A DNA stretch of 58,675 bases. Source: Planctomycetes bacterium HGW-Planctomycetes-1 (GTDB lineage Bacteria; Planctomycetota; Phycisphaerae; Sedimentisphaerales; UBA12454). Of the stretch, positions 40,113 through 49,857 are shown piece by piece (positions within the stretch are counted from its first letter, which is position 1; each line of letters starts with the position of its first letter). The notes below the pieces were generated by a model that worked only from the letters and a program-made list of their open reading frames with translations, did not search any database and was not told the origin of the DNA. The DNA lies in contig PGYD01000003.1 of assembly GCA_002839495.1 (NCBI GenBank), positions 1-58,675 on the forward strand, given 5' to 3'. A program made the position numbers and the translations under genes.

Positions 40113-41384
40113 TTATTTGGCGATTTTTTCCATACCGTTCATATACGGCCTGAGAACTTCCGGTATATTTATTGAGCCGTCGGCGTTCTGGTTAAGTTCG
40201 AGAACCGGTATCAGGATTCTCGGCGAAGCGATAACGGTATTATTCAGTGTATGGCAGAAGAAATTTTTCTTCTGTTTATTGTCCTTATAGCGAAGGTTCA
40301 ATCGCCTCGACTGGAAGTCATAGAATTTACTTGCGCTGTGCGTTTCGCCGTAACTTTTGCGAGACGGCATCCAGGCTTCGATATCGTATTTTTTGGCCTG
40401 ACCTCTGCCGAGGTCGCCTGTGCAGACTTTTACCACACGGTAAGGAATGCCGATTGCCTGCATCACGCCTTCTGAGTTGGCCCTGATTTCTTCGTGATAT
40501 TTTGCGCTTTCTGCGGGGTCGTTTTCACAAATGACAACCTGCTCGACTTTGTCGAACTGATGGATTCGATAAAGGCCGTAAGTGTCCTTGCCCGCGGCGC
40601 CGGCTTCTCTTCTATAACAAGTACTGAGACCGACGAATTTTTTCGGAAGTTTTTCCTGCGGCAGAATTTCACCTGTGTAATAGGCGGTAAGCGGAACTTC
40701 AGCGGTGCCTGCGAGATTTAATTCATCCCGTTCCATCCTGTAGGTCTGCTCTTCTGCGCCGGGATAGTAGCCTGTGCCGGCCATCGCCTCGTTTTTCATC
40801 AGCATCGGCACTGAAAAAGGCACATAGCCTTTTTTAATCATAAAATCCATCGCAAATCGAAGGATTGCCCAATGCAGAACCGCGCCTGTACCTTTTAGAA
40901 AATAATTTCTCGTTCCCGCCAGCCTTACAGCCCTTTCAATATCTATTATGTCAAGAGCCGTACCGAGATGGATATGGTCTTTGGGCTCGAAATCGAATTT
41001 CCGGATTTCGCCCCATTTTGCAATCTCAATATTTTCCGTGTCATCCTTACCGAAAGGCACATCATCGTCGGCAGGCTGAGGCACGGCAAGCATAAGCTCG
41101 TCGAATTCCGGCTGGAGATTTTTAATCTGCTCGGCGAGGGCGGCTTCCTCATTTTTGTATTCAGCGAGCTTGTTGATAAGTTTCTGTTTTTCGTCGCCGG
41201 CGAGTTTCGGAATGGATTTGCCGACGGTGTTCTTTTCAGTTGTTATTTCCTGCAGACGGGTTTTTACCTTTCGCAAATCATTGTCAAGCCCAAGCAGGCG
41301 GTCGATATCGACATAAAAATTCTTCGCTTTGCAGGCTGTTTTAAACGGCTCAGGATTATCGCGAATAAGTTTTATATCAATCAT
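40113..41384 (-). CDS. serS: serine--tRNA ligase
   Basis: GTAEVP, CYRREAG, GLYRIHQFDKVEQ, YDIEAW, HTLNNT. Confidence 0.97.
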   Translation of the reverse strand: MIDIKLIRDNPEPFKTACKAKNFYVDIDRLLGLDNDLRKVKTRLQEITTEKNTVGKSIPKLAGDEKQKLINKLAEYKNEEAALAEQIKNLQPEFDELMLAVPQPADDDVPFGKDDTENIEIAKWGEIRKFDFEPKDHIHLGTALDIIDIERAVRLAGTRNYFLKGTGAVLHWAILRFAMDFMIKKGYVPFSVPMLMKNEAMAGTGYYPGAEEQTYRMERDELNLAGTAEVPLTAYYTGEILPQEKLPKKFVGLSTCYRREAGAAGKDTYGLYRIHQFDKVEQVVICENDPAESAKYHEEIRANSEGVMQAIGIPYRVVKVCTGDLGRGQAKKYDIEAWMPSRKSYGETHSASKFYDFQSRRLNLRYKDNKQKKNFFCHTLNNTVIASPRILIPVLELNQNADGSINIPEVLRPYMNGMEKIAK

Positions 41385-41391
41385 AGTTTAG

Positions 41392-41497
41392 ACAGAAATA
41401 AGGATGTAAGGACATAAAGATGTAAGGATACAACAGCCAACAAATCGGCTATGATAGTTTTCCTTACTTCCTTGCATCTTTGTTTCCTTACTTCTTT
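41392..41497. repeat. inverted pair of 5x imperfect octamer arrays
   Basis: acagaaat aaggatgt aaggacat aaagatgt aaggatat ... ttttcctt acttcctt gcatcttt gtttcctt acttcttt. Confidence 0.8.
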
Positions 41498-41519
41498 TTT
41501 TATTCGTATTCATTCGTGG

Positions 41520-42839
41520 TTAATTTTTATATCGCTTTATTATAACAACATTATTCTGACCGCCAAAGCCAAAAGATTCCTTCAATACGATATTAACCTC
41601 TGCTTTTCGCGGCTTGTTCGGCACATAATCCAAATCGAGATTTGGGTCCGGGTCGTTAAGATTTGCCGTCGGCGGCAGCACATTATCACGAATCGCGAGG
41701 ATACAGGTAATCATCTCTGCCACACCGGCTGCGCCGATTAAATGCCCCATCATACTTTTGACACTGCTGACGGGGGTATTCTTCGCTTCTTCCTTAAAAA
41801 CCTTTTTTATGGCCAGAGTCTCAATCGAATCGTTCTCGGAAGTGCTTGTGCCGTGTGTACTTACATAATCTATATCCTTATAGGATACTTTTGCGTCTTT
41901 CAGGGCCGCTTCCAACGCCGCGACGGCTCCGCGGGCATCTTCGTGCATATCGGTTACACGAAAAGCGTCGCTGCTGCTGCCGTAGCCGAGAACCTCGGCG
42001 AGAATTTCAACGCCTCGTTTCTTTGCCGATTCGAGCGTTTCGAGTATGACGATTGCCGCTCCTTCGCCGATGACAAATCCGTCTCTGCTTGCGGTGAACG
42101 GACGCGAAGCGGTTTCGATACTATCGTTTCTGGTCGATAGGGCGGTCAGGCGGTTAAAGCCCATAACGCCCAAAGGATGAATCATCGAATGCGCGCCGCC
42201 GGCGAGCATTACATCGGCTTGGCCGGACTGCAAAATCTTAAATGCTTCGCCGATTGCCTGGGTGCTTGCCGCACAAGCCGTAAGGCAGCTTCTAATCACC
42301 CCGCGAGCGCCGGTCAGCATCGAGACGTGAGCGGCAGGCATATTCGGTTCCTGCTCAAGCTCGCGATAAGGCTGCATTTTGCCGAAGGCAACGGCTGCCC
42401 ATTTGTTCCAGTCCATCGTTCCGGCAGCGTCGTCCCAGCCCTGGACAATAGCGTTAAAGAAATTCTCGTTATCGACAGAGCCTTCGCCGGCGCCCAGATA
42501 TATGCCGATTCTTCTGCGGTCAATGCCGTCTTTGGGATTTTCTGTTTCTACATCTATTTTTGCCTGTTTGCAGGCCTGGGATGCCGCTCCGACAACGAAT
42601 TTACTGTGGCGGTTGCCATCTTTGTGCAGGTCGGGGTTCTTTGTGAATTTTGTAATGTCGTAATTTTTGACCTCGCAGCAGAATTTTGTCGGATATGTCG
42701 AGGCGTCGAAAATCGTGGTCTTATTCATACCGCTGCGGCAGTTGAGAATATTGTCCCACATTGTCGGAATATCGTTGCCGAGCGGACAAACGATGCCCAT
42801 TCCTGTTATCACAACACGATTTTTTGTTTTCTCATTCAT
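41520..42839 (-). CDS. fabF: beta-ketoacyl-ACP synthase (FabF-like, catalytic Cys-His-His intact)
   Basis: TACAAS, STHGTST, KSMMGHLIGAAG, SFGFGG. Confidence 0.9.
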   Translation of the reverse strand: MNEKTKNRVVITGMGIVCPLGNDIPTMWDNILNCRSGMNKTTIFDASTYPTKFCCEVKNYDITKFTKNPDLHKDGNRHSKFVVGAASQACKQAKIDVETENPKDGIDRRRIGIYLGAGEGSVDNENFFNAIVQGWDDAAGTMDWNKWAAVAFGKMQPYRELEQEPNMPAAHVSMLTGARGVIRSCLTACAASTQAIGEAFKILQSGQADVMLAGGAHSMIHPLGVMGFNRLTALSTRNDSIETASRPFTASRDGFVIGEGAAIVILETLESAKKRGVEILAEVLGYGSSSDAFRVTDMHEDARGAVAALEAALKDAKVSYKDIDYVSTHGTSTSENDSIETLAIKKVFKEEAKNTPVSSVKSMMGHLIGAAGVAEMITCILAIRDNVLPPTANLNDPDPNLDLDYVPNKPRKAEVNIVLKESFGFGGQNNVVIIKRYKN

Positions 42840-44145
42840 ATTTTTTCAGAATAATCGCGGCAGTCTGGCCGCCGTAAGTATAACTTGTGCAAAGAACATA
42901 ATTGTTCTTTTTCTTAATCTGTTCTTTGGCGATATTTAATTTGCAATCTTTATTGATGTTTTCGCAATTTTTAGCCGCCGGAATAATTCCGTCTTTAATC
43001 GCACAGCAGGCGGCGATAATATCGACCGCACCAGCCGCTGCTCCAGTGTTACTCGTCATACTCTTTGTCGGAAATACAGGTATCGAATCGGTTGCATTAC
43101 CGAGAGCCTGCCTGATTCCCTTTGCCTCGGCTGTATCGTCGGCTAAAATGCCAGTTCCGTGCGGAATAATCAAATCGAGCTGCTGGGGTTTTATCCCCGC
43201 ATCTGCAAGGGCGGCTTCGATTGCGTATTGAACGCCTTTGCCGTCCGGCTCGAGAGATTCATATTTTGCGTTTATACTGCAGCTTTGACCCAAACCTGCG
43301 ATTTGAGCGTAGATTTTCGCGTTGCGTTTTTTCGCGTTTTCTGGATTTTCAAGGATTACATTCGCCGCCGCTTCGCCGAAAACCGAACCTTTCGCGTCTG
43401 CATCGAAAGGCCGACAGGCCTTTTCGGGTTTATCGTTATAGTCCGCAGTTGCGCGATTGAGAAGACACTGCCTCAAATGTACGATAGCGTTTACTTTTGC
43501 TTCACCGCCGCCTGCAAGGGCGAGGTTCGCATCGCCGCGAGCGATTATCTGGGCGGCTTCGGCGATTGCCAAAAGCCCCGCGGACTCGGCACAGGTAATC
43601 GTATTGCTCATCCCCTGTATGTCGTGAATGATGCCGATGTGGCAGGCGAGCATATTGGGCAAATATTTAAGCAGCCACAGAGGCGTAACCGCTTCAATGC
43701 TGTATGTGCCCCATTTTTTTATATCGAATTTTCCGTCCGTGATGCCTTTCGCGACCGCAGGAGCAAGCTCGACAAGGTCGCAGCTTATAAGCCCTGCGCC
43801 GAGAATAATTGCCGTTCTTTCCGGATTGATATTTATATTCTGCTCATCGAAAGCCTTGGTTATTAGTCCTGCATCCTTGAATGCCTCGTTAGCGGCGATA
43901 ACGGCAAGCTCGATATCTCGCGACATCAGCTTTGTAGTTTTGCGAATCGCTTTGGGAACGTGGTCGCGGATACTAAATTCCGGCGCCTGACCTGCAATCT
44001 GACAGGTAAAACCCGCCGGGTCAAAAGCGGTAATTCTGCCTATTCCGCATTTACCCTGGCAAAGACCAGACCATAAATCCTGATAGCTTAAGCCGAGCGG
44101 AGTAACCGCTCCCAATCCTGTTATTACCGGCTTATGAGAGGTCAT
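42832..44145 (-). CDS. non-catalytic ketosynthase paralogue (chain-length-factor-like)
   Basis: KS fold (VITGLG, CRPFD, HGTG) but Glu at the catalytic Cys position (TCAESAG) and Asn at the second His (KSMTSNTG). Confidence 0.8.
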   Translation of the reverse strand: MTSHKPVITGLGAVTPLGLSYQDLWSGLCQGKCGIGRITAFDPAGFTCQIAGQAPEFSIRDHVPKAIRKTTKLMSRDIELAVIAANEAFKDAGLITKAFDEQNININPERTAIILGAGLISCDLVELAPAVAKGITDGKFDIKKWGTYSIEAVTPLWLLKYLPNMLACHIGIIHDIQGMSNTITCAESAGLLAIAEAAQIIARGDANLALAGGGEAKVNAIVHLRQCLLNRATADYNDKPEKACRPFDADAKGSVFGEAAANVILENPENAKKRNAKIYAQIAGLGQSCSINAKYESLEPDGKGVQYAIEAALADAGIKPQQLDLIIPHGTGILADDTAEAKGIRQALGNATDSIPVFPTKSMTSNTGAAAGAVDIIAACCAIKDGIIPAAKNCENINKDCKLNIAKEQIKKKNNYVLCTSYTYGGQTAAIILKKYE

Positions 44146-44633
44146 TTATCGCTCCCAAAGGCAGGTGCAGCAATGCCTGACGCCCTTAAGACAACGCCGA
44201 ACAGGTCGGTAAATACGAAGTTTTCTTTTGGAAATTGTTTGCCCGCGAGATTTTGGTCGATGTGGCTGAACATCAAATCAATTTCAGCGATTGTTTCGTC
44301 GCCGCAGGTGATTTTGCCTGTTGTCGAGGCGGCCTCGTCGGCAATCGATTCGATTTTGGCGTGAATTTTTATCGTATCTCCCGGCCGGACGTAGTTGAAA
44401 AACACAGCCTTATTGATTTTCGCAAGGATTACCTTTTCTTTGAACTGCCGCGCTTCGCCGACAAGAATGCCCGCAGTTTGCGCCATCGACTCAATCATCA
44501 GACATTCCGGCATAATCGGAAAGCCGGGAAAATTATCGTGCAGATACTCCTCAGCCATAGTTACATTCTTTATGGCGACGGCATTTGAGCCGCTGTTGAA
44601 CTCAATGAATTTATCTATCCAAATCCAACGCAA
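44142..44633 (-). CDS. FabZ-like dehydratase subunit (Glu kept, His->Asn)
   Basis: IKNVT..E, DNFPGFPIMPECLMIESMAQ, VRPGD. Confidence 0.85.
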   Translation of the reverse strand: MRWIWIDKFIEFNSGSNAVAIKNVTMAEEYLHDNFPGFPIMPECLMIESMAQTAGILVGEARQFKEKVILAKINKAVFFNYVRPGDTIKIHAKIESIADEAASTTGKITCGDETIAEIDLMFSHIDQNLAGKQFPKENFVFTDLFGVVLRASGIAAPAFGSDK

Positions 44634-44689
44634 ATTTATTACCTACAGTGTTAATCCGTGTCTAATAAAGAACCGCATTAATCCGCGTC

Positions 44690-45088
44690 TTAAGCGGCCG
44701 CATTAAGTTTGCCGTCAACGAAATTAACAAGTGCATCGACGGTAAACAAATCACCGATTTTATTGACGCTCGGGTCTTCGATAAATGCTGAAAGGTCGCT
44801 GTGCGGCATACGCTTCTTCAGCTCGTCCAGGCCCTTTTGGGTGAGCTTGCCGTTGCTGACGTATTCGGCAGTGCTTAAAAGGCTTTCAGCAGGAAAGAGC
44901 TCTTCTCTTGGTATTTTTATTCCGAACGCTTTTTCCATACGAAAAACGATATCGAGAAAATCGATGCTTTCAGCGCCGAGGTCCGCCATCAAAGTGGCGT
45001 CCGGCTTAACTTCTTCTTCATCAACTCCGAGAGCATCGACAAGTACGTCCTGAATTTCCTTTAAAATCTCATCCCGCGTCATAGCCAT
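44690..45088 (-). CDS. extended acyl carrier protein (132 aa)
   Basis: DLGAESIDFLDIVFRMEKAFGIKIP phosphopantetheine motif, with a long insert before the final TVxxLVxFV helix. Confidence 0.88.
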   Translation of the reverse strand: MAMTRDEILKEIQDVLVDALGVDEEEVKPDATLMADLGAESIDFLDIVFRMEKAFGIKIPREELFPAESLLSTAEYVSNGKLTQKGLDELKKRMPHSDLSAFIEDPSVNKIGDLFTVDALVNFVDGKLNAAA

Positions 45089-45131
45089 AACTTAAATCTC
45101 CGATAATAAAACATTAATCCTTTAATTACAT

Positions 45132-45180
45132 TGTCATTTCGAGCGAAGTCCCGATTTATCGGGACGAAGTCGAGAAATCT
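45132..45180. repeat. REP-like palindrome with nested mini-palindrome
   Basis: TGTCATTTCGAGCGAA-GTCCCGAT-TT-ATCGGGAC-GAAGTCGAGAAATCT. Confidence 0.7.
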
Positions 45181-45241
45181 TTTGAGAACTCCGTGCCGAA
45201 GGCACTCCAAAAATTTTCAATTTTCAATCTTCAATATTAAA

Positions 45242-45724
45242 TTATGCAGCTCCGCTTCCGGCTGCTAATAATTTGTATCTTTCTTTTAATTTATTTATAA
45301 CATAGGCATCTTCGACAGCGAGTTTCGAATCTTTCTCGGCAAGGTTAAAATGTCTCAAACTGAACCTTGCCTCGACGATAGGTTCTCCGTTGCAGGTGCC
45401 TGTTCCCGAAAACGAACTTATATTTTCTTCTATATCCTTTGCCGTAACGGTGTACTGAATAGTCGCACCGGGAGCGGCAAAGCTTTTGTATTTTACATTT
45501 TTTGCCTGCCCAAGCAACACCATACTATGGGCAAAATTTTCGCTGTCCCTGACGAGCCAGCAGGCCGATTCGACCAACCCCTGCAGCAGAAAAACGCCCG
45601 GAAGTACCGGAAAAACGGGGAAATGGTCCCCCAGATATTCCTCAGAAAGGGATACATTCTTGATAGAGGTTATCTTTTTACCGGGCACTATTTTAACTAT
45701 TTTATCAATCAGTATGAACTTCAT
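45242..45724 (-). CDS. FabZ-like dehydratase subunit (His kept, Glu->Gln)
   Basis: FILIDKI, KNVSLSEEYLGDHFPVFPVLPGVFLLQGLVE. Confidence 0.85.
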   Translation of the reverse strand: MKFILIDKIVKIVPGKKITSIKNVSLSEEYLGDHFPVFPVLPGVFLLQGLVESACWLVRDSENFAHSMVLLGQAKNVKYKSFAAPGATIQYTVTAKDIEENISSFSGTGTCNGEPIVEARFSLRHFNLAEKDSKLAVEDAYVINKLKERYKLLAAGSGAA

Positions 45725-45883
45725 AAGTGTTGGTCATTTTAGTGATTTAATTCCCTTTTACCAGCTTTTTTTAAAATTATAAGGGGGGCATTCCTATCGC
45801 AATTAGAGAGCCTATTTAAACTTTCAAAGGCAATTCGATTTTCTACAGTTTGTTTTATCTACTGCTATTTGTTATCTTTTTTC

Positions 45884-45912
45884 TTGACTTTGAAAGAACT
45901 CATTGCGATAAT
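45884..45912 (+). promoter_or_regulatory. sigma70-like promoter of the secreted-protein islet
   Basis: TTGACT-N17-GATAAT. Confidence 0.55.
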
Positions 45913-45989
45913 CAGCAAGGACAAAAACACAGTGGAGAAAATCAAGAGATAATTTATTTGGAGAGAACTTGCGCTGTGAGAGGAATACA

Positions 45990-46703
45990 ATGGAGCATAA
46001 AATTTTTCCGGTCGTTTTTGTTTTTCTAACCATCACAGCAATCTCATCGGCTCAGTATGATTATCCCGATTTGGCGGGCGACGCCGATATAATCAATTTC
46101 GCCGATTTCGCCGTCTTTGCCGAAAACTGGCAGAAGTCAGGCACCGGATTAGCGGGCGATTTCGACGACAGCGGCAAAGTCGATTTTAACGATTTAGCCT
46201 ATCTTTCCTATTACTGGCTTACCGCACAATGGGAATGCAGGAAAATCGACCTCGATTACAGCGGCCTGATTGATTTTTCCGATTTTGTAATTTTCGCCGA
46301 CTGCTGGCTCAGCAGTGACGGTAGTCCGAACTATAAGACAAATTGCGATTTTGACGACGATGATATAGTTGATATTTACGATTTAAAGGCCTTTTGCAAT
46401 TGCTGGCTCAAAGGCACAAGACCGCAGGGTATCTGGGAACAGTTCAAGGCTGCACTGGCGGCAGGCGATATAGACCGAGCCGTCAGTTTCTTTGCTGTTT
46501 TCGTGGCGGACGATTATAGAGACATATTTAATGAACACAGCGATAAATTGCAGAGTTTAGCGGCCGATATGGGCCAATTAACTCTTGAATACAGGGATAG
46601 AGATATTGCCGTTTATGAGTTAAGCAACGCCGCAGGCAATCTCTTCTTTCCGGTCGTTTTTACTATGGACGACGAAAGCAAATGGAAAATCGCGGTCTTC
46701 TAA
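45990..46703 (+). CDS. secreted protein with four dockerin/EF-hand-like repeats and an NTF2-like C-terminal domain
   Basis: Signal peptide; Asp-rich repeats ending in FADFAVFAENW / FNDLAYLSYYW / FSDFVIFADCW / YDLKAFCNCW; C-terminus WEQFKAALAAGDIDRAVSFF...WKIAVF. Start at 45990 after GAGGA. Confidence 0.7.
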   Translation: MEHKIFPVVFVFLTITAISSAQYDYPDLAGDADIINFADFAVFAENWQKSGTGLAGDFDDSGKVDFNDLAYLSYYWLTAQWECRKIDLDYSGLIDFSDFVIFADCWLSSDGSPNYKTNCDFDDDDIVDIYDLKAFCNCWLKGTRPQGIWEQFKAALAAGDIDRAVSFFAVFVADDYRDIFNEHSDKLQSLAADMGQLTLEYRDRDIAVYELSNAAGNLFFPVVFTMDDESKWKIAVF

Positions 46704-49121: not shown

Positions 49122-49248
49122 TATAAATGCCTTGTACTAAAATAATAAAACCTGAAATGACAAAATATTTAGATTGCAAAATGCCAAGAGTGAGTATACA
49201 ATTTTGGACATAATGGTTATAAGTATTGAATTTAATCGGTTTTTGATA

Positions 49249-49857
49249 ATGAGGAAAAAACAAAAAATACAAGGCCTGACAATCGTTGAGATTTTGGTCG
49301 CTATTGCAATCGTAGCACTGCTGGCGGCAGGACTGTATTCTGTCAGCAGCTATGTTGGTAGGCAGGCAAAAATAAAACTCACCGAATCGACAATCGCAAT
49401 CCTCACCGCCGCCATCGACGAATATCATGACTTCTACGGCAAATTCCCTTTTGAAGCCGATGAAAGTTACAATAAGTCAAACCTTGAGTCAGGTGTTAAT
49501 GGCGTTAACGGGACTGTCAGGGCATTCGTTAATGATGTTGACCAAGGTACCGCTGGCAGCCATAAAGACGAATATTCATCAATTGAAGCGTTGTATTATT
49601 TTTTGAATCGCGCTCCGGATGCCAAAAAAATTGTCGGCTCTATAAATTCTTCATTATTTACCAATAAAAGCGAAAATAAGAGCGAGGAATTTCGAGTTAT
49701 TATCGGTTCGACACAGTATCCTTTGGTAAGAATCGTTGATGCCTGGGGTATGGCGTTAAGGTATACCTACGCGACAGGCAACAATTTTCCCGCGATTACT
49801 TCCGCCGGCCCCGATAAGGATTTTACTAAGACCGATGATAATATCACCAGCCGTTAG
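49249..49857 (+). CDS. type II secretion / type IV pilin-like pseudopilin (GspG-like)
   Basis: Prepilin site QG|LTIVEILVAIAI, DAWG, SAGPD. TTGCAA-N17-TACAAT at 49174-49202 supports the later start. Confidence 0.85.
   Translation: MRKKQKIQGLTIVEILVAIAIVALLAAGLYSVSSYVGRQAKIKLTESTIAILTAAIDEYHDFYGKFPFEADESYNKSNLESGVNGVNGTVRAFVNDVDQGTAGSHKDEYSSIEALYYFLNRAPDAKKIVGSINSSLFTNKSENKSEEFRVIIGSTQYPLVRIVDAWGMALRYTYATGNNFPAITSAGPDKDFTKTDDNITSR

Follow-up and report, generated by a model that had tools for sequence, protein, structure and literature searches.

In FabZ, each active site lies at a dimer interface and takes its catalytic His from one chain and its Glu from the other; canonical FabZ is a homohexamer built as a trimer of homodimers. 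The double-hotdog dehydratase (DH) domains of type I fatty acid synthases (FAS) and polyketide synthases (PKS) have one site in a pseudo-dimer. Here, we describe two FabZ-like proteins, named DH-A and DH-B, which are encoded in one operon of Planctomycetes bacterium HGW-Planctomycetes-1. The stretch analysed (hereafter the window) comprises 58,675 nt, positions 1 to 58,675 of contig PGYD01000003.1 of assembly GCA_002839495.1. The two proteins have lost complementary catalytic residues and are probably the subunits of one obligate FabZ-type heteromeric dehydratase with a single canonical site. Unlike the halves of a double hotdog, they are encoded by separate genes, with the gene of an acyl carrier protein (ACP) between them.

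The principle of a split dehydratase with a single site is already in print for ApeI/ApeP of the aryl polyene (APE) pathway, which PMC8041823 describes as a heterodimeric dehydratase with one active site. The APE loci of Escherichia coli CFT073, Acinetobacter baumannii and Xenorhabdus likewise encode two small FabZ-like hotdogs, a dedicated ACP and a ketosynthase (KS)/chain-length-factor (CLF) pair. In our alignment, ApeI of E. coli CFT073 has His and Asp, and ApeP has no His but keeps the Glu, which is the same division as in DH-A and DH-B. The ApeI/ApeP heterocomplex was reportedly the subject of work by Grammbitter et al. in 2019, which PMC8253772 cites. The window pair is 17–20% identical to ApeI/ApeP and differs from it in two respects: its His-donor chain has lost its own Glu too, and most orthologues of the pair still have two complete sites. 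In a six-frame search of the genome at E ≤ 0.01, the window genes gave no match to PF22818 (ApeI-like) or PF22817 (ApeP-like). Only a FabZ-like gene on contig C11 touched PF22818 (21.6 bits, cut-off 28.5), and weak precomputed PF22818 hits exist. The window proteins match no Ape model in NCBIfam, and the operon is devoid of the other APE genes (adenylating ApeH, thioesterase, glycosyl/acyltransferases and LolA/MMPL export).

Two further systems provide a comparison. The anammox bacteria, which are also Planctomycetota, carry amxFabZ in the ladderane 'Cluster I'. In the preprint (bioRxiv 10.64898/2026.05.19.726425), this cluster is described with a dedicated ACP, a FabZ variant and a FabF pair with the altered one upstream, and this work of 2026 established amxFabF2/amxFabFmut as a heterodimer of the KS/CLF kind. 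According to PMC10139942, amxFabZ is a homohexamer of a single protein in which both residues are present; a second dehydratase, as in the window operon, is not part of the anammox cluster as described. The mycobacterial HadAB, HadBC and HadBD are heteromeric hotdog dehydratases with one site per pair, in which the partner shapes the pocket; their subfamily is hydratase-2 (MaoC), with HadB carrying the two catalytic residues (PMC10949391). The window pair, in contrast, is of the FabZ/FabA type, with the dyad divided between the chains; on the MaoC model PF01575, DH-B reaches 15.9 bits (cut-off 27) and DH-A has no match. No description of this Planctomycetota pair was found in the open literature searched, which included PMC2649909 by terms and had subscription-only papers outside its scope.

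Catalytic residues of DH-A and DH-B

The two dehydratase genes of the operon are as follows.

DH-A, 45242-45724, minus strand: FabZ-like hotdog protein of 160 aa with an ATG start, proposed as the His donor; its C-terminal tail has about 35 residues.
DH-B, 44142-44633, minus strand: FabZ-like hotdog protein of 163 aa with a TTG start and a conserved C-terminal tail; proposed Glu donor.

The TTG start of DH-B agrees with the MRWIWIDKF N-terminus in its orthologues. Both proteins match the FabA-like hotdog family PF07977 (DH-A 53.7 bits and DH-B 54.8 bits; cut-off 23). On the FabZ models, both remain under the cut-offs, with 81.6 bits (DH-A) and 92 bits (DH-B) on NF000582 (cut-off 113) and 75.4 and 90.5 bits, respectively, on TIGR01750 (cut-off 155.15). 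They are 33% identical to each other. The nearest solved relatives of DH-B are the anammox amxFabZ structures 8ayi and 7qv0 (E = 2.3e-15 to 4.4e-13).

The residue columns were set by alignment to solved FabZs and to the genome's own LpxC-FabZ fusion. In DH-A, His34 (codon CAT, 45623-45625) sits in the catalytic-His column and Gln48 (CAG, 45581-45583) in the catalytic-Glu column; Glu52 lies at 45569-45571. In DH-B, Asn34 (AAT, 44532-44534) sits in the catalytic-His column and Glu48 (GAG, 44490-44492) in the catalytic-Glu column; His32 lies at 44538-44540. Neither protein therefore shows the canonical FabZ feature of His and Glu in the same chain. The original prediction, made from the DNA letters, had noted this complementary loss, and the open reading frames, coordinates and codons are all confirmed, as are the motifs DHFP and LLQGLVE (DH-A) and MIESMAQ, DNFPG and YLHDN (DH-B).

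The state of the window is common to its relatives. Asn34 of DH-B occurs in 14 of the 80 closest species-level loci (L005-L018), and all nine of these loci with a readable DH-A have Gln48, so the Asn34/Gln48 state is not a sequencing accident. In an A:B dimer, the complete site would be formed by His34 of DH-A and Glu48 of DH-B, and the degenerate site would contain Asn34 of DH-B and Gln48 of DH-A. We infer that the two chains associate physically, that the pair acts as a dehydratase and that its second site is inactive.

Asymmetric residue loss, fused orthologues and the modelled complex

Orthologues were compared in the 80 best species-level loci, in 58 phylum-wide loci, in 80 metagenome loci and, for a tree, in 121 paired loci. 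Among the best 120 database homologues plus the query, DH-A His34 is present in 121/121 rows, and at position 48, 67 rows have Gln, 53 have Glu and one has Gly. The reverse is observed for DH-B, in which Glu48 is present in 121/121 rows and, at position 34, 87 rows have His and 34 have Asn. Both DH-A His34 and DH-B Glu48 are invariant in the 94 aligned orthologues of each protein (94/94). In the metagenome loci, the same two residues are kept (78/78 and 60/60, respectively); there, DH-A has Gln48 in 6 loci, and position 34 of DH-B holds Tyr in 10 and Arg or Gln in one each. The phylum-wide locus L130, a fragment without DH-A, has Tyr at this position as well. Across separate lineages, DH-B His34 is replaced by Asn, Phe, Tyr, Arg or Gln. 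Two of these natural residues, Phe and Gln, are the replacements by which the catalytic His of dehydratases is classically inactivated (PMC10949391).

The state of a pair is given here as DH-A/DH-B, with the residue at the His position followed by that at the Glu position for each protein. The 68 readable pairs of the 80 closest loci comprise 47 HE/HE, 12 HQ/HE and 9 HQ/NE pairs (plus the window), with neither HE/NE nor HE/FE (0 each). Phylum-wide, 52 of the 58 loci are readable as pairs, with 46 HE/HE, 4 HQ/HE, no HQ/NE, 1 HE/NE (L140) and 1 HE/FE (L136). Covariation of H/N with E/Q had been raised as a check by the original prediction: Asn34 goes with Gln48 in every readable pair of the 80 closest loci, 12 pairs of these loci have lost only the Glu of DH-A, and L140 combines Asn34 with an intact DH-A. 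Retention of both residues by orthologues, regarded in the same prediction as telling against a split site, is the rule (47/68 and 46/52 readable pairs), yet the heteromer is not refuted by it. Since most orthologues have both dyads, the complementary loss came late, as a derived condition of the clade to which the window belongs, and is not a trait of the family.

The same asymmetry is seen in the tree of 121 paired loci, which was built with FastTree after masking the trait columns. At least 10 changes at DH-A 48 (E/Q) and at least 4 at DH-B 34 were counted, and no change of DH-A His34 or DH-B Glu48 was found. These counts are approximate, as 45 of the 117 forks are unresolved and the two genome samples partly overlap (one identical pair was seen in the tree set). 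The two decaying residues, the Glu of DH-A and the His of DH-B, would make up one and the same composite site of an A:B dimer, and the pattern points to a heteromer. An obligate heteromer would predict the asymmetric loss observed, which two independent homodimers would not.

The repeated loss of the catalytic His from DH-B would also fit DH-A as the sole catalyst, acting as a homo-oligomer, with DH-B in a non-catalytic role such as ACP docking, chain-length gating or acyl-thioester handling. Non-catalytic hotdog partners are known, namely HadA, HadC and HadD (PMC10949391). Three observations make this reading highly improbable. DH-B Glu48 is never lost in any row examined, which is hard to explain without a catalytic role; the window's DH-A itself is without Glu48; and FabZ-type sites are composite, such that a catalytic chain needs the Glu of its partner. 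DH-B is 83–97% identical among the closest loci, the highest value of the five operon proteins. A protein that has lost its His and still shows the highest conservation of the operon is not a decaying gene.

The obligate heteromer with a single site is further indicated by proteins in which both halves are joined. A profile search with the DH-B alignment against 1.84 billion representatives revealed proteins of 345-406 aa with two matched stretches. In four of them (P0241, P0242, P0244 and P0319), the N-terminal half best matches DH-A and the C-terminal half DH-B; for P0241, the N-terminal half scores 119 bits on DH-A versus 78 on DH-B, and the C-terminal half scores 116 bits on DH-B versus 64. 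P0241, named by NCBI as 'Planctomycetia bacterium' (a metagenome-assembled genome, MAG), is the only fused protein with a name among those listed. Both halves also lie in one open frame in eight metagenome loci (L152-L159), and a further search yielded 175 fused proteins at E ≤ 1e-30. In all 120 listed of these 175, the C-terminal half has Tyr at the His position and keeps the Glu (120/120). The N-terminal half, readable in 103 of the listed proteins, has both His and Glu in 103/103. The fused DH-B halves are also devoid of His at positions 30 and 32. With no His at 30, 32 or 34 but the Glu kept, only the His of the DH-A half is left as its partner.

With a 66-row alignment, a fused form folds as two hotdog units, with a predicted local distance difference test (pLDDT) score of 92.3 and a predicted template modelling (pTM) score of 0.91; from the single sequence, the pLDDT was 35.3. 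Singly, the fused halves superpose on FabZ at 0.9-2.4 Å. The whole chain, searched with Foldseek, matches 2cf2_C (E = 1.8e-14, TM 0.63) and the DH domains of AlnB and CurK, with root-mean-square deviations of at least 10 Å, a much poorer fit than that of the single halves to FabZ. The fused orthologues fold like the double-hotdog DH domains of type I FAS and PKS. The fusions are the strongest indirect evidence for a pseudo-dimer, whose working site would combine the His of the A half with the Glu of the B half.

Other two-unit proteins were also observed. P0345 (586 aa) and P0329 (329 aa) contain two FabZ units, each with both catalytic residues; in P0345, a C-terminal stretch of about 250 residues follows these units. 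In P0269 and P0313 (306-309 aa), the order is reversed: the first unit has Ile for His, and the second is intact.

The separate proteins were co-folded using a 94-row alignment for each of DH-A and DH-B. The A:B complex reached an ipSAE interface score of 0.92 (runs 0.92, 0.93 and 0.91), and the best of three controls reached 0.00; this mark is attained by 116 of 157 solved complexes and by 2 of 215 mismatched pairs. At least 93% of the contacts are common to the runs, and the pLDDT of the partner is at least 86. The modelled interface corresponds to the canonical FabZ dimer interface, involving residues 29-38, 42-48 and 70-79 of both chains, and both C-terminal tails cross onto the partner. 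The residue loss, the fusions and the co-fold lend indirect support to the earlier proposal of a heterodimer with exactly one site, like a double hotdog. In that proposal, each homodimer would be inactive, and the second site could widen to take a long or unusual chain.

Possible substitute residues and competing readings

Several points weigh against a single-site heteromer. The first concerns the model: the A:B complex passes its controls, but the same pass would fit FabZ homodimers, and it may reflect memory of solved FabZ homodimers; the co-fold does not tell A:B apart from A:A or B:B. Second, most orthologues keep all four residues, and either protein could work alone there. Third, no fused form was found in the 401 sampled Planctomycetota genomes, in which 10 of 10 matching genomes carry separate halves. 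The fusion in L154 adjoins a divergently transcribed short-chain dehydrogenase/reductase (SDR) gene with no ACP or KS gene nearby, so that the pathway of the fused forms may differ. Fourth, an Asn in place of the His may leave some function. According to PMC10139942, a His-to-Asn mutant of amxFabZ retains about 1% activity, seen with 100-fold more enzyme; Asn at this position is hence not strictly zero activity.

The remaining points concern residues that could take over from those lost. Position 48 of DH-A is nearly always either Glu or Gln (Gly in 1 of 121), and it goes together with position 52. In the best homologues and in the phylum-wide and metagenome loci, every Gln48 is accompanied by Glu or Asp at position 52, and every Gln52 by Glu48. 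The combination with Glu52 occurs in the window's wider clade, L131, L132 and L138, and that with Asp52 in L185. This pattern in the alignments suggests that the acid of DH-A is constrained or has moved by one helical turn, and that the site may not be a dead one that drifts freely. In DH-B, His32 is kept in 120 of 121 rows and could substitute for the lost His.

Two independent homo-oligomeric dehydratases, with His34 and Glu52' as the dyad of DH-A and His32 and Glu48' as that of DH-B, would accommodate the invariable pairing of Gln48 with Glu or Asp at 52 (for example, Q48/D52 in L185), the near-invariance of His32 and the complete dyads that both proteins have in most orthologues. We consider this unlikely. 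L017 combines Asn34 with Gly32, and in the window position 30 is Tyr and not His; therefore, no single substitute His is common to the Asn34 clade. The fused DH-B halves lack a His at 30, 32 and 34, yet retain the Glu in all those listed. Furthermore, His32 and Glu52 are family or clade traits that are older than the losses and not compensatory gains. As a separate observation, the canonical ExxxQ motif of DH-A looks swapped to QxxxE/D.

The same two residues also allow a variant of the heteromer in which the silent site is remodelled. His32 of DH-B lies two residues and Glu52 of DH-A one helical turn away from the canonical position, and both are conserved. They could form a second dyad with another geometry and make the heteromer bifunctional, for example, as a dehydratase and a double-bond isomerase, although the chance of this is slim. 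In FabA, dehydration and isomerisation take place within one site.

A heteromer with chemistry beyond or besides dehydration, such as FabA-like isomerisation or AmcE-like cyclisation, would account for the scores of DH-A and DH-B under the FabZ equivalog cut-offs, for their weak similarity to AmcE (46.3 and 37.5 bits; cut-off of the model 140) and for the conserved polar residues retained in the silent site (His32 and Asn34 of DH-B; Gln48 and Glu52 of DH-A). This is very unlikely, because the AmcE scores are far under the cut-off and are explained by a general likeness to FabZ, and because the retained His/Glu dyad and the ketoreductase (KR) genes of related operons fit an ordinary KS-KR-DH cycle. 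A heteromeric dehydratase with one canonical site, formed by His34 of DH-A and Glu48 of DH-B, is therefore the reading that we prefer.

The operon as a second FAS-like module

The two dehydratase genes belong to a compact operon on the minus strand with the order DH-A / ACP / DH-B / KS1 / KS2, followed by serS. Its other three genes are as follows.

Insertion-ACP, 44690-45088, minus strand: 132 aa, located between both dehydratase genes; 51.6 bits on PF00550.
KS1, 42832-44145, minus strand: FabF-like ketosynthase of 437 aa with a Cys185-His329-Asn366 triad.
KS2, 41520-42839, minus strand: FabF-like ketosynthase of 439 aa with an intact Cys-His-His triad.

The stop of DH-B and the start of KS1 overlap by 4 bases, and KS1 and KS2 overlap by 8 bases. 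A promoter and terminator scan of 41300-46000 gave nothing above the shuffled expectation (9 vs 6.0; 11 vs 6.3). The insertion-ACP contains about 45 extra residues between the helix that follows the Ser motif and the last helix. It is kept across the phylum with 48-89% identity, is alignable to solved ACPs over residues 4-82 only and scores under every NCBIfam ACP cut-off.

The two ketosynthases differ in their relation to FabF. KS1 scores 305 bits on the fabF model TIGR03150, under the cut-off of 493.75, and its Cys-His-Asn triad is present in 64 of 79 aligned rows, including the window. A triad of this kind is of the FabH/chalcone-synthase type, as opposed to Cys-His-His. KS2 scores 446.9 bits on NF005589, over the cut-off of 387, and its best solved relative is Bacillus subtilis FabF (4ls5/4ls6; E about 4e-103); its Cys-His-His triad is present in 68 of 73 rows, the remaining rows being truncated. 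Whereas amxFabFmut has no Cys, KS1 keeps the Cys and the first His, with Asn for the second His. KS1 and KS2 probably form a heterodimer like the anammox amxFabF pair, though KS1 retains its Cys.

The genome assembly comprises 1.83 Mb in 167 contigs and is 93.8% complete. Its canonical FAS II genes are located elsewhere, with plsX-fabH-fabD-fabG on C102 and acpP-fabF on C85. An LpxC-FabZ fusion with intact His and Glu is found at C146:793-1161, where it is cut by the contig end. A third FabZ-like open reading frame at C11:1583-1945 also has His and Glu and scores 87.3 bits (FabZ cut-off 113). With a full canonical FAS II present, the operon is a second, parallel module and not the housekeeping pathway. 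A role of the module as a replacement for a missing FabH was considered and rejected, as fabH is present on C102. The proposed heteromer would serve this second FAS-like elongation module, together with its own insertion-ACP and KS1/KS2 pair.

The module is widespread in the phylum. The source names of the homologues are Phycisphaerae and Sedimentisphaerales MAGs. The gene order is kept in the 80 best species-level loci, with KS1 after DH-B in 78/80 and the two exceptions ending at the edge of the locus. In five of the loci (L027, L038, L043, L046 and L047), about 3 kb separate the ACP gene from DH-B; the gap is short in the others. In an even sample of 401 Planctomycetota genomes, a DH-B match (E ≤ 1e-20) was found in 59, including the window's own. 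These matches cover 8/8 genomes of the same taxonomic order, 15/15 others of the same class and 20/20 of one further family.

Distant genomes keep the core of DH-A, ACP and DH-B, and KS1 may be missing. An SDR ketoreductase gene is often located between DH-A and the ACP in these genomes, and none is present in the window operon; an alpha/beta-hydrolase, GH3-family or B12 radical-SAM gene may come after the core. Three loci illustrate the variety. L136 (G097), L107 and L131 all have the SDR ketoreductase gene between DH-A and ACP. An alpha/beta-hydrolase gene follows the KS gene in L107, and a DUF362/ferredoxin gene follows the KS pair in L131. L136 also has aminotransferase, B12 radical-SAM, alpha/beta-hydrolase and GH3-family genes. 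The window's genome, at its 93.8% completeness, yielded no GH3 domain. A GH3-dependent ornithine-lipid route (OlsH/OlsI) was accordingly not adopted for the window; moreover, a term search of the OlsH paper (PMC12493201) found no mention of dehydratase, ACP or ketoacyl genes.

Two further genes of the window were observed upstream of the operon or beyond, both on the plus strand. The gene at 45969-46703, upstream of the operon, encodes a protein with a dockerin-like repeat (PF00404, 26.9 bits). The protein encoded at 49174-49857 is a candidate whose N-terminus resembles, by eye, a type II secretion pseudopilin signal.

Should the heteromer be real, a possible origin of double-hotdog dehydratases can be followed within a single orthologous group. 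Most Planctomycetota have two intact sites; the decay of one composite site has occurred repeatedly and independently, namely in the clade of the window, L136, L140, L181 and L229; and the halves are fused in one chain in at least 175 proteins. Each stage of such a series, with a two-site heterodimer first, a one-site heterodimer next and a fused double hotdog last, appears to survive in living members of this orthologous family. In addition, the pair is the mark of a widely conserved, uncharacterised second FAS-like module, which is kept even in a genome of 1.83 Mb.

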